64,000 nucleotides of DNA from Gaiellaceae bacterium (lineage in GTDB: Bacteria > Actinomycetota > Thermoleophilia > Gaiellales > Gaiellaceae), in assembly GCA_036556565.1 (NCBI GenBank), contig DATBJE010000267.1, positions 166 to 64,165 on the forward strand. The letters run 5' to 3'. The notes beneath the pieces are model-generated. The model searched no databases and had not been told where the DNA came from. It saw nothing but the letters and a program-made list of their open reading frames with translations. Positions 4,926 through 62,294 of this stretch are shown here, in pieces. Each line of letters begins with the position of its first letter. Position 1 is the first letter of the stretch. The position numbers and the translations under genes are program-made.

Positions 4926-5234
4926 GTGCCGTCGACGGACAGCCCGCCCAGCGGCGACGACAGGACAGACTTGACGCGGCGCCTCGAGGACGCAGAGGCT
5001 GAGCTCGACGCGCTGCGGACCGCGCACGAGGCGCAGGCTCGTTTCCTCGTCCAGGAGCGCCTAGCCCTCGCCGACGAGATCGAGCGGGAGATGCAGATCC
5101 TCCAGGAAGAGATCGACTGGCGGACCGGGGTGATGGAGCACCAGCAGGAAGTCATCGAGATCTTCCAGAACTCACGCTCGCTCCGGTACACGGAGCCGTT
5201 TCGCAAGGTCGCCCGCGCCTTCCGTCGCAGTTGA
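4926..5234 (+). CDS. Small coiled-coil protein, unknown function
   Basis: 102 aa with heptad-rich LEDAEAELDALRTAHEAQARFL...EIEREMQILQEEI. Ends in SRSLRYTEPFRKV, resembling the S-x-S-W-R-x-T-x-P-L-R tail seen after coiled coils in O-antigen enzymes. 4-nt overlap with the next gene. Confidence 0.55.
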   Translation: MPSTDSPPSGDDRTDLTRRLEDAEAELDALRTAHEAQARFLVQERLALADEIEREMQILQEEIDWRTGVMEHQQEVIEIFQNSRSLRYTEPFRKVARAFRRS

Positions 5235-7168
5235 CCGACACGCTCGCCGTCAGCACTGTCGACACGCCGCTCGTCTCGGTCGTGATGGTCACGCACGGCG
5301 CCGGCGAGACGGCAGTCAAGGCGGTCAAGGCCCTGATCGAGAACACCGACGAGCCGTTCGAACTCGTCATCGTCGACAACCCCTCGGGCGACCGAACGGC
5401 GGCGGCGCTGAAAGAGAACATCCAGGGCGCGACGATCGTCGAGAACGAGGACAACGTCGGATTCGCGCGAGCCTCCAACCAGGGCGCGGACCTGTGCTCA
5501 GGGCACTTTCTGTGCTTCCTCAATCCCGACTCGTTCGTCCAGCCCGGATGGCTTCGCCCGCTGCTGCAGGCGTTCGAGCGCAACGAATCAGTCGGCGTGG
5601 CCGTGCCGCTCTTCCTCCACGAGGACGGCCGCGTCCAGGAGGCCGGGTCGGCTCTCGACTCGCGAGGCGTGGCGTTCTCGGTCGGCGACGGAGAAGACGC
5701 AAGTTCGTTCTCCGTACGCTTTCCCCGCCCCATCGACTTCGGTTCGGCCGCCTGCCTGGTCGTGCGAGCCGACCTCTTCGACGAGGTCGACGGCTTCGAT
5801 CCCGTCTACACGCCGGCGTACTACGAGGACGCCGATCTCTGCTTCCGGCTGAATGCGCGTGGCTACATCACGGTCTACGAGCCCGACTCGCGAGTCGTTC
5901 ATCTCCGCGGCGGCAGCACGCCACGTGCACGAAGGCTCACGTGGATGAACCGAAGGATCTTCCTCGAGCGGTGGCGGGATCGCCTGGAGCTCAGGAAACC
6001 ACTCCGCGCCGACCAGGACAACCCACGCATGCATCCGGCCCATCGCGACGCGGAGCAGCTCGAACGCATCCTCGTCATCGACGACCGCGTGCCACACCAT
6101 GACCGGGGGTCAGGCGACCCTCGGATGGCGAAGCTCGTCGCCGAGGTCGCCGACCTATGGCCGGACGCGCGCGTGACGTTCCTTGGGGCGGTTCCGTCGA
6201 ACGCCGAGCGCTATGCCGCGCCGTTGCTCGCGCAAGGCATCGAGGTGGCGGTCGCCGACGATCAGGTGCGCCAGTGGTTCGAGCAACGCCGTTACCACTA
6301 CTCCGTCGTCCTCGTCAGCCGGGCCTCGAACATCGACCGCTTCGAACAGGAGCTCAGGCGGACTCAAGCCCAGGCCAGGCGGATCTATGACATCGAGGCG
6401 CTCGCCTTCCGGCGAGAAGACGACGAGCAGACGGCGAAGCTGGAGGAGCTCGAGGGCGCCGGAATCGGCGGCGCCGACGTCGTGCTGTGCGCATCGGAGG
6501 ACGAGGCATCGTATGCCCGCGACCGGACCGACGCGCCAGTGTTCGTCCTACCGACCTACGTGGACCCCCTGGAGCATCCGCCCGGCTACGAGGATCGGGC
6601 CGGTGTCGCCTTCTTCGGGGGCTTCCTGGCCGGGCCCGGCGGGCCGAACGAGGACGCCGCAGCGCACCTCGTCAGGGACGTGATGCCGCTGCTCTGGGAG
6701 CGGCTGCCGGCGCTCGAGGTCGAGATCCTGGGCGCCAATCCGACCCCCGTCGTCCGCGAGCTCCAGGGCCCGCGCGTGAATGTCGTCGGTTTCGTCCCGG
6801 ACCCGATCGACCGGCTCTCTCGCCTTCGCGTCCACGTCCATCCGTTGCGCATCGGCGCCGGCATCAAGCTCAAGCTCATCGACACGATGGCCGCGGGCCT
6901 CCCCTTCGTCACGACACCGACTGGAGCTGAAGGGCTCGGGCTCGCGGATCTCGAGGACGTGCTCGTCGCAGAGTCGCCGTCCGACCTCACACGGCTCGCG
7001 CTCGAGCTCTACGAGAACGCCGGGCTCTGGGCCGACGTCCAAGGGCGTCTGCTCGACCTGGTGAGTAGACGCTTCGGCCGGGAGTCGTTTCGCCGCACCC
7101 TGATCGAGGCGTTCGCGAATATCGGCGTGGCGCCGCCCGCTGGACGGGTGCTCAGCTCCGCGGAGTGA
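5231..7168 (+). CDS. Bifunctional glycosyltransferase: N-terminal GT2 plus C-terminal GT-B (GT4-like) domain
   Basis: N-terminal VSVVMVTHGAGE...ELVIVDNPSGDRT, DSFV and YEDADLCFRL (GT2). C-terminal half has the Rossmann/GT-B pattern (VGFVPD...IKLKLIDTMAAGLPFVTT). Confidence 0.75.
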   Translation: MTDTLAVSTVDTPLVSVVMVTHGAGETAVKAVKALIENTDEPFELVIVDNPSGDRTAAALKENIQGATIVENEDNVGFARASNQGADLCSGHFLCFLNPDSFVQPGWLRPLLQAFERNESVGVAVPLFLHEDGRVQEAGSALDSRGVAFSVGDGEDASSFSVRFPRPIDFGSAACLVVRADLFDEVDGFDPVYTPAYYEDADLCFRLNARGYITVYEPDSRVVHLRGGSTPRARRLTWMNRRIFLERWRDRLELRKPLRADQDNPRMHPAHRDAEQLERILVIDDRVPHHDRGSGDPRMAKLVAEVADLWPDARVTFLGAVPSNAERYAAPLLAQGIEVAVADDQVRQWFEQRRYHYSVVLVSRASNIDRFEQELRRTQAQARRIYDIEALAFRREDDEQTAKLEELEGAGIGGADVVLCASEDEASYARDRTDAPVFVLPTYVDPLEHPPGYEDRAGVAFFGGFLAGPGGPNEDAAAHLVRDVMPLLWERLPALEVEILGANPTPVVRELQGPRVNVVGFVPDPIDRLSRLRVHVHPLRIGAGIKLKLIDTMAAGLPFVTTPTGAEGLGLADLEDVLVAESPSDLTRLALELYENAGLWADVQGRLLDLVSRRFGRESFRRTLIEAFANIGVAPPAGRVLSSAE

Positions 7169-45716: not shown

Positions 45717-47755
<2,039 letters not shown>

Positions 47756-47777
<22 letters not shown>

Positions 47778-48736
47778 TCCCGCAGCCGCTCGAGGTCGGC
47801 CTCGACCATCAGCCGGACGAGCTCGGGGAACTCGACGTCGCGTTCCCAGCCCAGCTGCTCCCGCGCCTTCGTCGGATCGCCGACGAGCGACTTCGACTCG
47901 CTGCGGCCGCGCGCGAACTCCTGGTCGTAGCGGACGTGCTCCCGCCAGTCGAGGCCCACCTCGCCGAAGGCGGCGGCGACGAAGTCCTCGACGCTCCGCG
48001 CCTCGCCGGTGGCGATGACGAAGTCGTCCGGCTCCTCCCGGGCCGCCATGAGGCGCATCGCGCGGACGTAGTCGCCCGCGAACCCCCAGTCGCGCTGCGG
48101 CGACAGGCTCCCGAGGTGGAGCTCCTGCTCGAGGCCGAGGCTGATCGCCGCCGCGCCGTGCGTCACCTTCCTCGACAGGAAGTGGATCGGCCGGCGCGGG
48201 GACTCGTGGTTGAAGAGAATCGCCGAGGACGCGTGCAGCCCGTACTCGCGCCGGAAGGCGCCGGTGACGAAGTGCCCGAAGGCCTTGCCCGCACCGTAGG
48301 GCGTCAGCGGCGTGATCGGCGTCATCTCAGTCTGCGGGCTCTCCCGCGGGGAGCCGAAGATCTCGGCCGATGCTGCGCTCACGAACCGCGCCTCGGGCCG
48401 CTCCAGGCGGATCCCGTCCAGCAGGCCGGTGACCGCGGCGACTGCGGCGATCGACGTTCCGACCGGGTCCTCCCACGAGGCGGGGACGAACGAGGCCGAC
48501 GCCAGGTGGTAGACCTCGTCCGGCTCGAGCTCGCGGAGCGCCCTGCGGATGTCCGCCGGATCGTCGAGCTCGATCGCCGGGAACCCGATCCGGTCCCTCA
48601 TCGGCGCGAGGGTCTCGTACTGTTCAGGATTCCCGAGCACGGTGCCGAACACCTCATAGCCATGCGCGAGGAGCTGTTCCGCGAGGTAGGACCCGTCCTG
48701 CCCGCCGATTCCGGTCACGAGCGCGCGACGAGCCAT
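47756..48736 (-). CDS. Gmd-family SDR paralogue; candidate GDP-4-keto-6-deoxymannose reductase (Rmd-like) or second dehydratase
   Basis: [66 protein letters not shown]. Collinear with gmd but diverged. Confidence 0.75.
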
Positions 48737-58140: not shown

Positions 58141-59293
58141 AGACCTGAAACGTGCGGAACGCCGGCTTGCGCGCTCCGCGCCGGGTGACGACACCCGACT
58201 GCCAGCCGCTCAGCCGCGGCTCGTCACGGATCAGGAACCAGACGAAGACGTCGATCCGGCGCGTCTTCTTCGCCATCGCGATCGCCTGGCGCATGTACTT
58301 CGCCTGGTTCGCGTACGAGACGCCGAAGAGCCGGTCCGGCGGGTTGGTCTGGTAGCCGTACTCGGTGACCCAGACCCGGGTCTTGCGGCCCCAGAGCTTG
58401 TTCACGTGCTTGATCAGCAGGCCGATGTTCCCCATCGTCACGGCCTTCTTCGAACGCGGCACCGTCGACGGCTTCTCGGTGCGGTGGCCGTAGTACGGAT
58501 GGTGCGCGTATGCGTCGATCCGGCGCACGCCGGCGCGCCGCATCCACGTCATGAAGACGAGCGGCGAGGTGGACGGGCGGGACGTGCCCGGCGCGTCGTT
58601 GCCGCGCGGGCCCGTGGCGCCGCAGGCGACCTTCTGGCCGGCGAGACGCGTGGCGTGGACCCCTGCCCAGATCGCGTTGCAGATCTTCGCGTAGTCGTAC
58701 GCGGCCTGGACGCGCCACTTGCGGGCGACCCGCTTCCACTGCGGCCGGAGGAAGACCGGGTTGTTCGGCTCGTTCCAGGCCAGCCACTGGCGGACGGCCG
58801 GAAGCGTCCGCTCCGGCTCGTTCTCGGACTCCTTGACCGTGTAGGTGCCGCTGTAGCGCAGTGCCGCGGCCGTCGCGAAGAGACGCAGGTCGATCGGACG
58901 GGTCGGGACGCGGTTCCGCGCGCGGCCGGCCCAGCGGGGCGTGCCGTAGATCGCGAGCAGCACGCGGATGCCCTTCTTGTCCGCCTCGTCGATCACACGG
59001 TCGACCGCCGTCCAGTTGTAGGCGGGATCGGCCGGGTCGGCGGGCTTCGCCGGGCGACGCTTGGCGATGGTGCCCCAGTCCAGCGTCGTGCGGACGAGCC
59101 CTGCGCGGAGGGAACGGAGCTGCGTGTACGCCCAGGAGGTGTTGCCGTAGACCTGTGCGTCGTCGTAGAAACCGAACTGCATGCGGGTCGCGCTCGAGCG
59201 CTTCTCCGCCGAGTCGGCCTCACGGGTCACCGAGCCGGCGACCGCCGCAGCCGAGAGAACTAAGACGAGTACCAGGACGACACGTCTAAACAC
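58130..59293 (-). CDS. Secreted clan GH-A (TIM-barrel) glycoside hydrolase
   Basis: Signal-peptide-like [30 protein letters not shown] (acid/base NEP) and VWVTEYGY (nucleophile TE) as in GH5/GH39-type enzymes. Confidence 0.7.
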
Positions 59294-60224
59294 GGATTTG
59301 CTCCCTTCCTAGACTTGGCAACATTCGGCGCAGACCCTCTTCGAGCTCGATCTCGGGGGCCCAGCCGAGGATCTCCTTTGCACGCGTGATGTCGGGTTGG
59401 CGGATCTGCGGGTCGTCGACCGGCAGGGCCTCGTGGACGATCTCGCTCCTCGACTCCGTTACCCGGATCACCGTTTCCGCAAGCTCGAAGATCGTAAACT
59501 CGCCCGGATTTCCCAAATTGACGGGCTTGTGCTCCTCGCTCGTGGCGAGCAGGTAGAGCCCCCGGATCAGGTCGTCGACGTAGCAGAAGCTCCTCGTCTG
59601 CGACCCGTCCCCGAAGACCGTCAGCGGCTTGTGCTCCAGCGCCTGGCGCATGAACGTCGGGATCGCGCGGCCGTCGTGTGGCCGCATCCGCGGCCCGTAC
59701 GTGTTGAAGATCCGGACGATCGCCGTGTCTACGCCCTGCTGGCGGTGGTACGCCATCGTCATCGCCTCGGCGTACCGCTTCGCCTCGTCGTAGACCCCGC
59801 GCGGCCCGGTCGGGTTGACGTTCCCCCAGTAGGTCTCGGGCTGCGGGTGGACCTGCGGGTCGCCGTAGATCTCGCTCGTCGAGGCGAGCAGGAAGCGCGC
59901 CCGCTTCCACTTCGCCAGACCCAGCGCATTGTGCGTGCCGTACGACCCCGTCTTCAGCGAGTGCAGCGGCTGACGGAGGTAGTCGATCGGGCTGGCCAGC
60001 GCCGCGAGGTGGAACACGAGGTCCACCGGCTCGTCGATGTCGATCCGCTCGATCACGTCGTGGTACAGGAACGTGAACCGGTCGTCGCGGATGTGCTCGA
60101 GGTTGCCGAGCGTGCTCGACTCGAGGTTGTCGATGCAGATCACCTTGTGGCCCTGCGCGAGCAGGTACTCACAGAGATGGGAACCGAGGAACCCGGCTCC
60201 GCCGGTGACGACCGCAGTGGCCAC
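59286..60224 (-). CDS. uxs: UDP-glucuronate decarboxylase (UDP-xylose synthase)
   Basis: GTG start. [68 protein letters not shown]. Confidence 0.9.
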
Positions 60225-60233
60225 TGCTGACCT

Positions 60234-60239
60234 AGGTTA
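60234..60239 (-). promoter_or_regulatory. -10-like TAACCT box 9 nt upstream of the uxs GTG start
   Basis: Minus strand reads TAACCT-AGGTCAGCA-GTG, downstream of the terminator. Confidence 0.35.
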
Positions 60240-60286
60240 TCGGCCGGTCCGGAAAGGCCTGCTCTCCTTTACGAAGGCTTTACCGC

Positions 60287-60314
60287 AAAAAACCGCTGCT
60301 AGCGCGGGTTTTTT
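60287..60314 (-). terminator. Intrinsic (bidirectional-looking) terminator: A6 - GC stem/loop - T6
   Basis: Plus strand reads AAAAAACCGCTGCTAGCGCGGGTTTTTT. Minus-strand RNA reads AAAAAACCCGCGCUAGCAGCGGUUUUUU. It is the most AT-rich element in the window. The stem is short (about 4 GC pairs plus a bulge plus A:U pairs). Confidence 0.55.
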
Positions 60315-60345
60315 ACCGAAGGTCCTTGTTCGACTCCATGTCGAA
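60313..60345 (-). pseudogene. Orphan remnant of a GT gene 3' end (FDMESNKDLR-stop)
   Basis: Minus strand reads TTC GAC ATG GAG TCG AAC AAG GAC CTT CGG TAA. The live gene end at 60430..60462 reads TTC GAC ATG GAG TCG AAC AAA GAT CTG AGG TAG. All 5 differences are synonymous. Confidence 0.65.
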
Positions 60346-60347
60346 CC

Positions 60348-60419
60348 GGCCGCAACGCGGCCTGTCCGCCGCAGGCGGACCGGTGGAAGGGGTCTGGGGA
60401 GACCGGGAGGTTTCCCCAG
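60348..60419 (-). other. Run of GC-rich hairpins in the 3' UTR of the GtrB-like gene
   Basis: GGCCGC-AAC-GCGGCC (60348..60362) and GTCCGCC-GCA-GGCGGAC (60364..60380). GGTCT-GGGG-AGACC (60391..60404) is mutually exclusive with CTGGGGA...TCCCCAG (60394..60419). Confidence 0.5.
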
Positions 60420-60429
60420 CTACCCGCCG

Positions 60430-61374
60430 CTACCTCAGATCTTTGTTCGACTCCATGTCGAACCACATCGCAAAGAGCGTGAACTGCGTGCCAGAGATGA
60501 GCAGCAGCGCGACGAGGGTCGCGGTGCCGGCGGTGATGTCCCCGGCGAGGAAGATCCGCTCGATCGCGACCCAGCCGCCGAGCGCGAGCCCCAGGGTCGT
60601 CATCACGATCCCCAGCGCGTAGAAGAAGACGAGCGGGTGGAAGTCGCGGATCACGTACTTCTCGCGCAGCCGCCAGAAGAAGCCCTTGAAGAGCAGCCAC
60701 GCGATCGCGGGAACCACCTTCCAGAGCCGGATCCCCGAGCGCTCGCCGACGTTGTAGATCGGCCGGGACGGGAAGTCGCGCACCCGCGCGTTCCACACGT
60801 TCAGGTGGACGAGCATGTCGTTGGGGAAGCCGTAGCGCGGGTAGATCCGGTCGAGGTCGAGCTGCTGCAGCATCGGCCTCGTGATCGCCGTGAACCCGGA
60901 CTGCGAGTCCGCGACGTGCCAGTAGCCCGAAGCGATCTTCGTCAGCATCGAGAGGACGGCGTTGCCGAGGTAGCGGTGCCGCGGCATCAGCTGCCACGCC
61001 TGGCCGGTGAAGAGCCGGTTCGCCTTCGCGTAGTCGACCTCCCCACGGGCGGCGGCGCCGACGATGGTCTCGAGATCCTGCGCGTCCATCTGCCCGTCGG
61101 CGGCCATGACGGCGGTGACGTCGACCTTCTCCTCGAGCGCGCGCTTGTAGCCCGTGACGATCGCGGCGCCGACGCCGCGGTTGCGGTCGTGGCCGAGCAC
61201 CTCGACCCTCGGGTCGCCGGACTCCGCGGCCCGCGCGGCCGTCGCGTCGCTCGAGTGGTCGTCCACGACGTAGATCCGGTCGACGAAGGCGGGGATCGTC
61301 GCGAGCGTCCGGCCGATCAGCTCCTCCTCGTCGTGGGCCGGGACGACGACCGCGACCCGCTTGCCGTCGACCAT
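60430..61374 (-). CDS. Polyprenyl-phosphate glycosyltransferase-like GT2 (GtrB/DPM1 type) with C-terminal TM helices
   Basis: VAVVVPAHDEEELIGRT, YVVDDHSSDAT, NRGVGAAIVTGY, AADGQMD, DSQSGFTAI, then 2-3 TM helices. Confidence 0.8.
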   Translation of the reverse strand: MVDGKRVAVVVPAHDEEELIGRTLATIPAFVDRIYVVDDHSSDATAARAAESGDPRVEVLGHDRNRGVGAAIVTGYKRALEEKVDVTAVMAADGQMDAQDLETIVGAAARGEVDYAKANRLFTGQAWQLMPRHRYLGNAVLSMLTKIASGYWHVADSQSGFTAITRPMLQQLDLDRIYPRYGFPNDMLVHLNVWNARVRDFPSRPIYNVGERSGIRLWKVVPAIAWLLFKGFFWRLREKYVIRDFHPLVFFYALGIVMTTLGLALGGWVAIERIFLAGDITAGTATLVALLLISGTQFTLFAMWFDMESNKDLR

Positions 61375-62294
61375 TAGTTGGTGCGGGGGCGGAAGCGGCG
61401 CTCGGCCGGCTCCCAGAGGATCGCCGCGAGCAGGCCGAGGATCAGGCCGATCAGCCCGCCGACGAGCAGCGAGCGGTCGACGCTCCGCGCGGTCGTCTTC
61501 CTGGACGCGGCCTGATTCACGACGCTCGGCGCCTCGACGTTCTCGGCCAGCGAGAGCGCCTGCCTGCCCTCGAGGAGATTCTGGGTGACGAGGCCGCGGC
61601 GCTCGACCAGCGACCCGATCGTGGCATTGAGCGTGGTCACGCCGATCAGGCGGTCGGTGGCACTCAGGCTGCGATCGTTCTGGAGGCGGGTCAGCTCCGC
61701 CTGGGCGGCGTCGAGACGCCGCTCGCTCTCGGCCAGCTCGCGCTCGTCGGCGGAGATCCCCTCCTGGAGCGCCGAGATCTTGTCGGCGACGTACGGGTTG
61801 ACGTCGTCGACCACCTCTGCGGCGAGCAGGTTGGCCGCCCTCGCCGTTACGCGGGCGTTCTGGCCGGTCACCGCGACCTCGATCAGCGGCGTCGTCCCGG
61901 CGACGACGCGGCGCCCCGCGGGGGGCGACACCTGACGGCTGGTCACGTTGCCGCGGAGCTTGCCGATGTCCATCCCGCTTCGTTCGGCGACGCGCTGAAG
62001 CACGTCCTCGCTGTGGACGATCTCGTTCACGGTGGACGGGTTCGTGGCGAGCCCGGGAACCGGCGCGCCGCCGTTCGGCGAGAACGGCTGGCCGAGATAC
62101 AGCGTCGCCTCGGCGCGGTAGACGTCACCGCCGCCGATCGCGAGCGCGTAGCCGGCCGCGATCCCGAGCAGGAGCCCGAGGACCGGCAGCCACCAGCGGC
62201 GCTTGACCGCCTCCCACCACCCGCGGACGTCGACCTCGCGCTCGGCGTCGAGGTCGAGCTCCTCCGGCGGAACCCGCTGCTGCGTCGTCGTCAT
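61374..62294 (-). CDS. Wzz-like polysaccharide co-polymerase (chain-length determinant)
   Basis: N-terminal TM (WWLPVLGLLLGIAAGYAL), Wzz-type YRAEATLYL motif, long coiled-coil region, C-terminal TM (LLVGGLIGLILGLLAAIL). Confidence 0.7.
   Translation of the reverse strand: MTTTQQRVPPEELDLDAEREVDVRGWWEAVKRRWWLPVLGLLLGIAAGYALAIGGGDVYRAEATLYLGQPFSPNGGAPVPGLATNPSTVNEIVHSEDVLQRVAERSGMDIGKLRGNVTSRQVSPPAGRRVVAGTTPLIEVAVTGQNARVTARAANLLAAEVVDDVNPYVADKISALQEGISADERELAESERRLDAAQAELTRLQNDRSLSATDRLIGVTTLNATIGSLVERRGLVTQNLLEGRQALSLAENVEAPSVVNQAASRKTTARSVDRSLLVGGLIGLILGLLAAILWEPAERRFRPRTN

Follow-up and report, generated by a model that had tools for sequence, protein, structure and literature searches.

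The 64,000-nucleotide (nt) stretch of a Gaiellaceae bacterium contig analysed here, referred to as the window, includes on its minus strand a live gene for a GT2-family glycosyltransferase (GT) of 314 amino acids (60430..61374), which has a GT-A domain followed by a C-terminal membrane segment (Pfam PF00535, E 5.7e-20) and ends with the amino acid sequence FDMESNKDLR. Its best solved relative is a distant one, the dolichol-phosphate mannose synthase 5mlz (E 2.9e-9, GT-A domain only), and the AglJ and PpgS equivalog models gave scores far below their cut-offs. The gene, named GtrB-like in a preliminary description of this DNA, may thus encode a polyprenyl-phosphate glycosyltransferase of the GtrB/DPM1 type. 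Behind the gene lie a non-coding stretch, a second copy of the gene end, a hairpin and a sugar-nucleotide epimerase/dehydratase gene. Copy 1, GGTTCGACATGGAGTCGAACAAAGATCTGAGGTAG (60464..60430, minus strand), is the translated end that closes the open reading frame (ORF) of the GT2 protein; copy 2, GGTTCGACATGGAGTCGAACAAGGACCTTCGGTAA (60347..60313, minus strand), starts 117 nt downstream of the start of copy 1. The two copies have 30 of 35 bases in common, and the spacer between them measures 82 nt, rather than the 84 nt given in the preliminary description of this DNA. The five differences (AAA/AAG, GAT/GAC, CTG/CTT, AGG/CGG and TAG/TAA) are all synonymous, as that description had stated; five random substitutions in the 33 coding bases would all be synonymous in about 1 of 20,000 trials (p ~5e-5). 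A degenerate search for the 35-mer allowing up to three mismatches found exactly two sites in the 64 kb and none in 100 shuffles.

About 190 related loci, denoted by L numbers, were fetched, which amount to about 1.07 Mb of related DNA overall; 159 unique alleles entered the codon alignment, and codon states were counted over 169 live gene ends. Two objections foreseen in the preliminary description, an assembly artefact and a dispersed repeat, can be answered with these data. Five contigs from as many other samples or assemblies (L001-L005) carry the 206-nt intergenic region without a single base change and also encode the exact GT protein, bringing to six the assemblies, including the window, that have both copies. 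The duplication, unchanged in the window and these five independent contigs and diverged in three further contigs from metagenome-assembled genomes or metagenomes, is therefore not an assembly artefact. In the window and the related loci the 35-mer is confined to the ends of this gene or fossils thereof, without off-target copies, and it does not behave as a dispersed repeat within the DNA searched.

The former gene end and the DNA behind it

Immediately after copy 2 comes AAAAAACCCGCGCTAGCAGCGGTTTTTT, a sequence that folds as a hairpin when analysed with ViennaRNA (60287..60314, minus strand). It consists of A6, a 4-bp G+C stem, a 7-nt loop and T6, and is kept in L167, L173 and L174. Because the G+C stem has only four pairs and a simple consensus terminator scan gave no flag, the hairpin is termed terminator-like here; the direct adjacency to copy 2 and the fold claimed in the preliminary description hold, and the designation as a terminator has been reduced accordingly. 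Further downstream there is a conserved intergenic box, GGTAAAGCCTTCGTAAAGGA (60265..60284, minus strand), which anchors the orthology of the DNA behind copy 2 and was found in the form GTAAA(A/G)C(G/C)TTCGTAAGGA in L010, L011, L012, L021, L092, L166, L167, L171 and L173. The box lies ahead of a gene for an NAD-dependent sugar-nucleotide epimerase/dehydratase similar to UDP-xylose synthase (UXS-like; 59286..60224, minus strand; Pfam PF16363 and PF01370, and synteny), and the same gene is found in alleles with and without the duplication.

The nature of copy 2 is revealed by un-inserted syntenic alleles, L167-169, L173, L174 and L184-187, whose GT proteins are 87-90% identical to that of the window. 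In these alleles the GT gene ends with AAAGACCT(C/T)CGGTAA and is followed directly by AAACCCTCGCTAGCAGCGGTTTT, the box in the form GTAAA(A/G)CGTTCGTAAGGA, and the UXS-like gene, so that the hairpin, AAACCC(T/G)CGCTAGCAGCGGTTTT, is joined directly to the GT gene. Their live ends differ from copy 2 at only 1-2 of 35 positions (a match of 33-34/35) and from copy 1 at 5. Since these alleles run from an end like copy 2 into the same hairpin, copy 2 and the hairpin are the ancestral end of the window lineage, and the 117 nt ahead of them are an insertion. Alleles in which the GT gene runs directly into the terminator had been foreseen in the preliminary description, which regarded the orphan as the relic 3' end of a diverged homologue with its original terminator; the empty sites bear out the relic, which is nevertheless the displaced former end of the resident gene itself and not that of a diverged homologue. 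A look-up of the UXS-like protein, meant to find a haplotype of this population without the insert, yielded no contig other than the one known before.

The 117-nt unit and its hairpin module

The inserted unit of 117 nt consists of five codons plus stop (AAA GAT CTG AGG TAG) followed by an 82-nt non-coding module with three hairpins (60348..60429, minus strand). A second FDMESNKDLR-stop downstream of the gene is also present in three loci from other Gaiellaceae lineages, L006, L092 and L074, whose GT is 92%, 77% and 74% identical to that of the window and in which the copies are offset by 118, 116 and 110 nt, respectively. The spacers of all four are homologous and share the right junction, in which GGCC is immediately followed by GGTTCGAC. 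The module is 91-93% identical among the window, L006 and L092, and the L074 spacer is about 70% identical; on the other hand, the nucleotide identity of the GT genes of the first three is 77-90%, with 79% at third positions between the window and L006. For L092 and L074 a codon indel makes an ungapped third-position comparison with the window invalid, and only whole-gene identities are given for those pairs.

The two copies have different affinities. The copy 1 tail of the window, AAAGATCTGAGGTAG, is of the type that travels with the module: its states AAA, GAT, AGR and TAG are common to copy 1 of L006 and L092 and rare among the 169 live ends. Copy 1 of L092 (GAA TCG AAC AAA GAT TTG AGA TAG) is thus of the module type, whereas copy 2 of L092 (GAG AGC AAC AAA GAT CTC CGC TAA) agrees at 34/35 positions with the live end of L021 and L100, the nearest relatives of L092, and the DNA behind this copy 2 also matches their downstream DNA. 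Copy 2 of the window and copy 2 of L092 differ at 7 bases, and copy 1 and copy 2 of L092 at roughly 8, in both cases including the three-base serine switch TCG/AGC, and all of these differences are synonymous; in a simulation none of 200,000 sets of 8 random substitutions remained so. A non-coding relic that had drifted neutrally for long could not show this pattern, which fits ends that were live until recently. The copies of L074 are identical to each other and those of L006 differ at 2 bases only. Therefore, as copy 2 is of the resident type and copy 1 of the module type in both the window and L092, the unit composed of copy 1 tail and module has moved between lineages, entering different resident alleles independently. 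The preliminary description took the hairpin stretch for the 3' untranslated region (UTR) of an incoming gene; this is too simple, since the module always has copy 2 behind it among the 159 unique alleles and the same junction recurs in three other lineages.

Within the module, hp1 (CTGGGGAAACC-TCCC-GGTCTCCCCAG, followed by a C-rich tail) occupies 60419..60394, hp2 60380..60364 and hp3 60362..60348, all on the minus strand. All four module versions fold into three hairpins, with z scores of -3.2 (window), -5.8, -3.7 and -1.9, and for a 211-nt region z is -4.4. In the RNAalifold consensus, hp1 and hp3 are preserved by compensatory changes at 5 of 44 pairs. Variable columns are 11 of the 38 unpaired and 2 of the 46 paired ones (Fisher p = 0.002), a comparison that is partly circular as the structure was predicted from the same four sequences. 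These models suggest that the hairpins may be under selection. The complementary strand folds equally well, and the sequence thus cannot tell action as RNA from action as DNA; as a guess, the module could be a 3' UTR stabiliser, a processing site or a terminator-like element. Rfam 15 gave no gathering-score match in the window and only chance-level ones (E >=0.8) in 59000..62000 searched at E <=10. There is one module copy in the window, and in the 1.07 Mb neither nhmmer nor a covariance model detected the module anywhere but at the end of this gene, except for hairpins resembling hp1 in L051 and L079. A covariance model of hp1 run over the same DNA recovered its training sequences only, as did a relaxed regular expression.

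The hp1-like hairpins of L051 (2134-2245) and L079 (3028-3140) have the apex ACCUCCCGGU and a C-rich tail and stand in tandem pairs upstream of a wzz-like gene; they are followed by another hairpin with a GAGG ribosome-binding site in its loop and the start codon in its 3' arm. This arrangement may be a translational control element related to hp1 of the module. A resemblance of GGCGGGTAG, at the start of the module, to JUMPstart/ops was considered and rejected, as it is not conserved in L006 or L074, and a duplication of the CRISPR repeat kind was rejected on account of the homology of the "spacer" between lineages.

Junctions in the last codons

The end of the GT gene contains an invariant block, ATGTGGTTCGACATGGAGTCGAAC (60445..60468, minus strand), that holds the 7-5-7 palindrome GTTCGAC-ATGGA-GTCGAAC (60463..60445). 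It is the most conserved 24-mer of the GT gene, with a mean column conservation of 0.98 against a gene-wide third-position mean of 0.76 in the 159 unique alleles, and contains the longest run of columns conserved at >=95%; of 169 alleles, 153 have TCG as the serine codon of the block. For RecA exchange between diverged DNA, the minimal efficient processing segment (MEPS) has been estimated at 25-35 bp (PMC6382021). Because of this length requirement and the conservation of the block, we read it as a natural, putative crossover island. The junctions fall in the block, in agreement with the crossover in the conserved last codons proposed in the preliminary description, and in L092 the switch from module type to resident type occurs within the first ~14 nt of copy 2.

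Directly upstream of copy 1 there is a mosaic tract (60469..60532, minus strand), in which the window has 11 synonymous differences from L002 and L003, two loci that are otherwise ~99.8% identical to it over 6-8 kb. The differences end exactly at the block. The L002/L003 version of the tract is closest to that of L006, a carrier of the unit (5/75 differences), while the window version is closest to those of the non-carriers L007 and L009 (6/75 differences). The demonstrable import is 117 nt long and is abutted by this mosaic tract of at most ~65 nt; nothing indicates the swap of a whole gene postulated in the preliminary description.

An exchange of the downstream DNA itself was observed at another locus. 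L174 and L175-183 encode the same protein. Their GT genes agree up to and including nt 938, have different bases at 939, 942 and 945, in the last three codons, and lead into unrelated DNA. With the change from identical to unrelated sequence inside the last 7 nt of the gene, this is a genuine exchange of the DNA downstream, joined within the last codons. It is an exchange of the kind imagined in the preliminary description, but at another locus; at the window site the gene content on both sides is unchanged, so that the duplication there is not the scar of a cassette or serotype exchange and this part of the description is only partly right. As a separate observation, L175-L183 are nine contigs from nine samples that are all broken 58-144 nt past the stop, in sequence unrelated to L174, and the longest of these ends (L177, 1957-2100) finishes with a perfect 12-bp inverted repeat, TCGTCGCAAGTC-GTGA-GACTTGCGACGA. 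Breaks at one spot in so many assemblies suggest that a repeated or mobile element starts there.

A smaller fossil, which the preliminary description had not included, lies inside the terminator-like hairpin. Copy 3, AAAAACCCGCGCTAG (60299..60313, minus strand), is an older relic, made of the last five codons and the stop, that now forms part of the A-tract and of the stem, with its old TAG within the stem, and it matches the live end of L171 and L010, AAAAACCTGCGCTAG, at 14/15 bases. In the alignment, the last five codons are duplicated in tandem (14-15 nt) in the window, L167, L173 and L184 but not in L188, L171, L010 or L166; the duplication is polymorphic between L184 and L188, which encode identical proteins. 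Orphan ends are also found behind bigger inserts: in L047 behind 2 kb with a PD40 beta-propeller gene, in L023 behind 3.4 kb with a gene for an extracytoplasmic function (ECF) sigma factor, and in L055 behind 3.4 kb with a GT2 gene, where the end has decayed and carries two amino acid changes. Three nested fossils of one gene end have thus survived, measuring 15 nt and 35 nt and, in other loci behind 2-3 kb inserts, 27 nt. The orphan ends of L047 (6921) and L023 (8363), the latter with its stop lost, begin at (C)ATGGAG, within 1 nt of each other in the palindrome loop, a coincidence that simple homologous recombination does not explain.

Other arrangements around the gene end were noted. An alpha/beta hydrolase gene is inserted between the GT and UXS-like genes of L170 (5946-6953) without a fossil end, and in L006 a reverse-strand gene for a 292-amino-acid membrane protein lies behind copy 2, also between those two genes (5064-5970). 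In about 34 of the 169 related loci (e.g. L015, L022, L026 and L028) there is no stop after KDLR and the protein continues with KDLGGRGRRRTDR-stop, an alternative arginine-rich C-terminal extension of the same glycosyltransferase.

All ORFs of the window (1-64000) with a Pfam match belong to glycan synthesis or export, which makes it an unusually large contiguous glycan region. It includes Wzt/Wzm ABC transporter genes (1-1928), at least 15 GT1/GT2/GT4 genes, four methyltransferases, a cytidylyltransferase, a GDP-mannose dehydratase and a dTDP-sugar epimerase. Across 59150..60950, from the UXS-like gene through the intergenic region into the GT gene, of which the 3' half is included, the G+C content is 0.60-0.69, compared with 0.70-0.78 in the DNA to either side. 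The preliminary description had suggested looking for breaks in GC skew or codon usage here; the dip is not evidence of import, since in all relatives alike it takes in the UXS-like gene and the conserved GT 3' half. Elsewhere in the window, a 105-nt direct repeat of 74% identity has one copy within an ORF for a GT4 protein of 795 amino acids, while the GDP-mannose dehydratase gene has the second at its 3' end (45751-45855 and 47784-47888, 2033 nt apart).

Origin of the duplicated end

We consider it probable that the locus as a whole is the result of recombination through the identity island, acting on a structure that was created once by duplication. Copy 2 is the former GT end of the lineage and has kept its connection to the terminator-like hairpin that belonged to it and to the DNA upstream of the UXS-like gene; a 117-nt unit with the last codons of another allele has been placed in front of it. 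The unit would have arrived by homologous recombination from an allele that was already ordered end-module-end, with the right crossover inside the second copy of the invariant block and the left crossover in the first copy or slightly upstream. The block is the only stretch of the gene that is identical between diverged alleles over roughly the length that RecA requires, and a recombination of the RecA type is the likely vehicle. The end-module-end order presumably arose once, because the junction is identical in four lineages. Its source was probably a tandem duplication of the gene end with its 3' UTR, or alternatively a one-sided illegitimate joining of the kind reviewed elsewhere (PMC6382021). 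The DNA after copy 2 of L006 begins with a 16/21 match to the module start (p ~0.02), which is a weak hint. A similar event on a smaller scale could have produced the 15-nt copy 3. With the conserved C-terminus under selection, only rearrangements that keep a complete gene end would survive, and for this reason a fossil end would be left each time.

Several observations weigh against this explanation. There is no donor allele, with the 82-nt module as plain 3' UTR and without copy 2, among the 159 unique alleles. The right crossover of L092 is confined to the first ~14 nt of copy 2, which is below the usual RecA minimum. The breakpoints of the L047 and L023 orphan ends both lie in the palindrome loop, no more than 1 nt apart, and a structure-directed or site-specific process would explain this coincidence more naturally. 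The evidence for selection on the module structure comes from four sequences, the same ones used for the prediction of that structure, and the search for further copies, which found none, covered the window and about 1.07 Mb of related loci rather than whole genomes.

Two rather unlikely proposals make the unit a mobile one. In the first the 117-nt unit would be a new miniature mobile module, a structured 82-nt element that homes into the palindromic, nucleotide-invariant end of the GT gene and is moved by an unlinked recombinase or through the identity island, and the glycan operons of Thermoleophilia would have in hp1 (GGGGRAACC-UCCC-GGUUYCCCC plus C-rich tail) a new cis-regulatory RNA motif. 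If so, a mobile module would bring its own last codons and the host gene would never be damaged. In the other, which we likewise regard as improbable, the unit would be a miniature non-autonomous site-specific element carrying a replacement gene end, with the palindrome as an att-like core that is cut by a tyrosine-type recombinase whose gene lies elsewhere. Of such an element one would expect the same junction in four lineages that differ in their resident ends, a crossover within ~14 nt that contain the 7-5-7 dyad, the complete replacement end brought by the unit, the near invariance of the synonymous sites of the dyad, and the start of the L047 and L023 orphan ends in the dyad loop. The junctions of L047 and L023, however, have no left arm and are hence not conservative site-specific products, the mosaic tract beside copy 1 resembles ordinary gene conversion, and the unit is too small to circularise as duplex DNA and has no copies at other sites in ~1.1 Mb. 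A recombinase was not detected either: the 36 window ORFs tested (about 10 kb of the window were not covered) include no integrase, transposase or reverse transcriptase, and the larger inserts of L006, L023, L047, L055 and L170 have no recombinase domains. A tRNA/tmRNA scan of the window for an att site resembling a tRNA found none, exact-pattern scans of a viral collection for the repeat 20-mer and the hp1 core gave 0 matches, and blastn of the 171-nt region against a plasmid collection gave no match. Two related candidates were rejected. GTTCGAC and GTCGAAC resemble the core and inverse-core sites of an integron attC, but the flanks are unable to pair as L'/L'' and each site has one mismatch to the consensus; and a diversity-generating retroelement is not indicated, as the differences (A/G, T/C, G/T, A/C and G/A) are not confined to adenines and no reverse transcriptase is encoded by the tested ORFs.

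It is very unlikely that the 117 nt were duplicated in tandem in the window lineage itself, with copy 1 then changing synonymously and copy 2 frozen. Tandem duplication of this gene end does happen, as the 15-nt case shows, and the copies of L074 and L006 are identical and 2 bases apart, respectively; but the copy 1 tail of the window has the rare codons found in copy 1 of L006 and L092, the un-inserted relatives match the window in the copy 2 tail and the terminator-like hairpin, and there is no second module in the DNA after copy 2.

We give just as little credence to a function of copy 2, be it as a mini-ORF or leader peptide (MESNKDLR), as part of an RNA element formed with copy 1, or as a target of readthrough or ribosome bypass. 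Coding capacity is kept in all four lineages, copy 2 of the window is in frame with the gene, the orphan ends of L047 and L055 retain an ATG-to-stop mini-ORF, and RNAalifold pairs both tails with one compensatory change. All the same, the start-to-start offsets of the four loci differ, so that the reading frame is not conserved and readthrough or any other frame-dependent mechanism is excluded, and bypass or readthrough would leave the product unchanged anyway. There is no Shine-Dalgarno sequence ahead of the copy 2 ATG, and copy 2 is probably untranslated. Moreover, the copy 2 hairpin is broken in L092 and weakened in L006, the stop is lost in L023, L055 has two amino acid changes, and a recent origin from live ends fully accounts for the coding pattern. 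An assembly artefact or a dispersed multi-copy repeat has a negligible probability, given the identical and diverged occurrences in independent contigs and the lack of off-target copies described above.

The process that we favour, recombination through the identity island, has counterparts in other systems. Conserved genes bordering the variable parts of capsule, O-antigen and exopolysaccharide loci show recombination mosaics. The window shares with them its 64 kb of glycan-synthesis genes, crossovers in a conserved gene beside variable DNA, the alternative downstream DNA joined in the last codons of L174/L175, and gene remnants at the junctions; it differs in that the gene content at the window site is unchanged and that the moved part is a 117-nt unit recurring in distant lineages. 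Integrative elements that insert into the 3' ends of genes, typically of tRNA or tmRNA, make attL/attR duplications and carry a replacement end. Here too direct repeats of a few tens of bases with a dyad-symmetric core flank the insert, the gene-side copy is supplied by the insert so that the gene stays intact, and the displaced original end lies downstream. Unlike those elements, the insert is 82 nt long and contains no integrase or other gene, no integrase was found nearby, and the mosaic tract at its flank favours homologous recombination.

Homology-facilitated illegitimate recombination and MEPS-limited RecA exchange (PMC6382021, citing de Vries and Wackernagel 2002) offer a further parallel. 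A conserved anchor, in this case the GT gene with its 24-nt block, lets diverged or foreign DNA join, and an identity island of ~25 nt sets where the exchange between diverged alleles resolves. The difference is that here the mechanism is deduced from sequence alone in an uncultured organism, and that the identical junction in four lineages implies that an illegitimate step, if any, happened once. The module resembles repetitive extragenic palindromic (REP) sequences, bacterial interspersed mosaic elements (BIME) and units similar to miniature inverted-repeat transposable elements (MITE) in being small, intergenic, rich in G+C, dense in hairpins and located at the 3' end of a gene, and in that a hairpin like hp1 occurs at another intergenic position in L051 and L079. 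In contrast to them, it is not multi-copy in the 1.1 Mb examined and is always tied to the end of this gene, it has neither terminal inverted repeats (it begins with CGGCGGG and ends with GCGGCC) nor a short target duplication, and the flanking repeat is 35 nt long and differs between copies.

Structured RNAs are known within polysaccharide operons, for example the eps-associated RNA of Bacillus. Like this RNA, the module is a conserved multi-hairpin element located between polysaccharide-operon genes and upstream of a terminator, here the terminator-like hairpin; its sequence and architecture are unrelated, and Rfam gave no match even at E <=10. The 82-nt module can be considered a candidate structured RNA without an Rfam family, with a possible effect on mRNA stability or termination.

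Most likely, the finding is an example of a known process, ordinary recombination, with one new component, the conserved hairpin module, and current understanding is not overturned by it. Annotation pipelines and pangenome tools will take fossils of this kind for spurious mini-ORFs or assembly errors. For uncultured soil Actinomycetota, the locus provides an unusually clean, sequence-dated record of the remodelling of a glycan-cluster boundary, in which all fossil ends pivot on one 24-nt identity island and selection for an intact C-terminus would force each surviving rearrangement to bring its own gene end.

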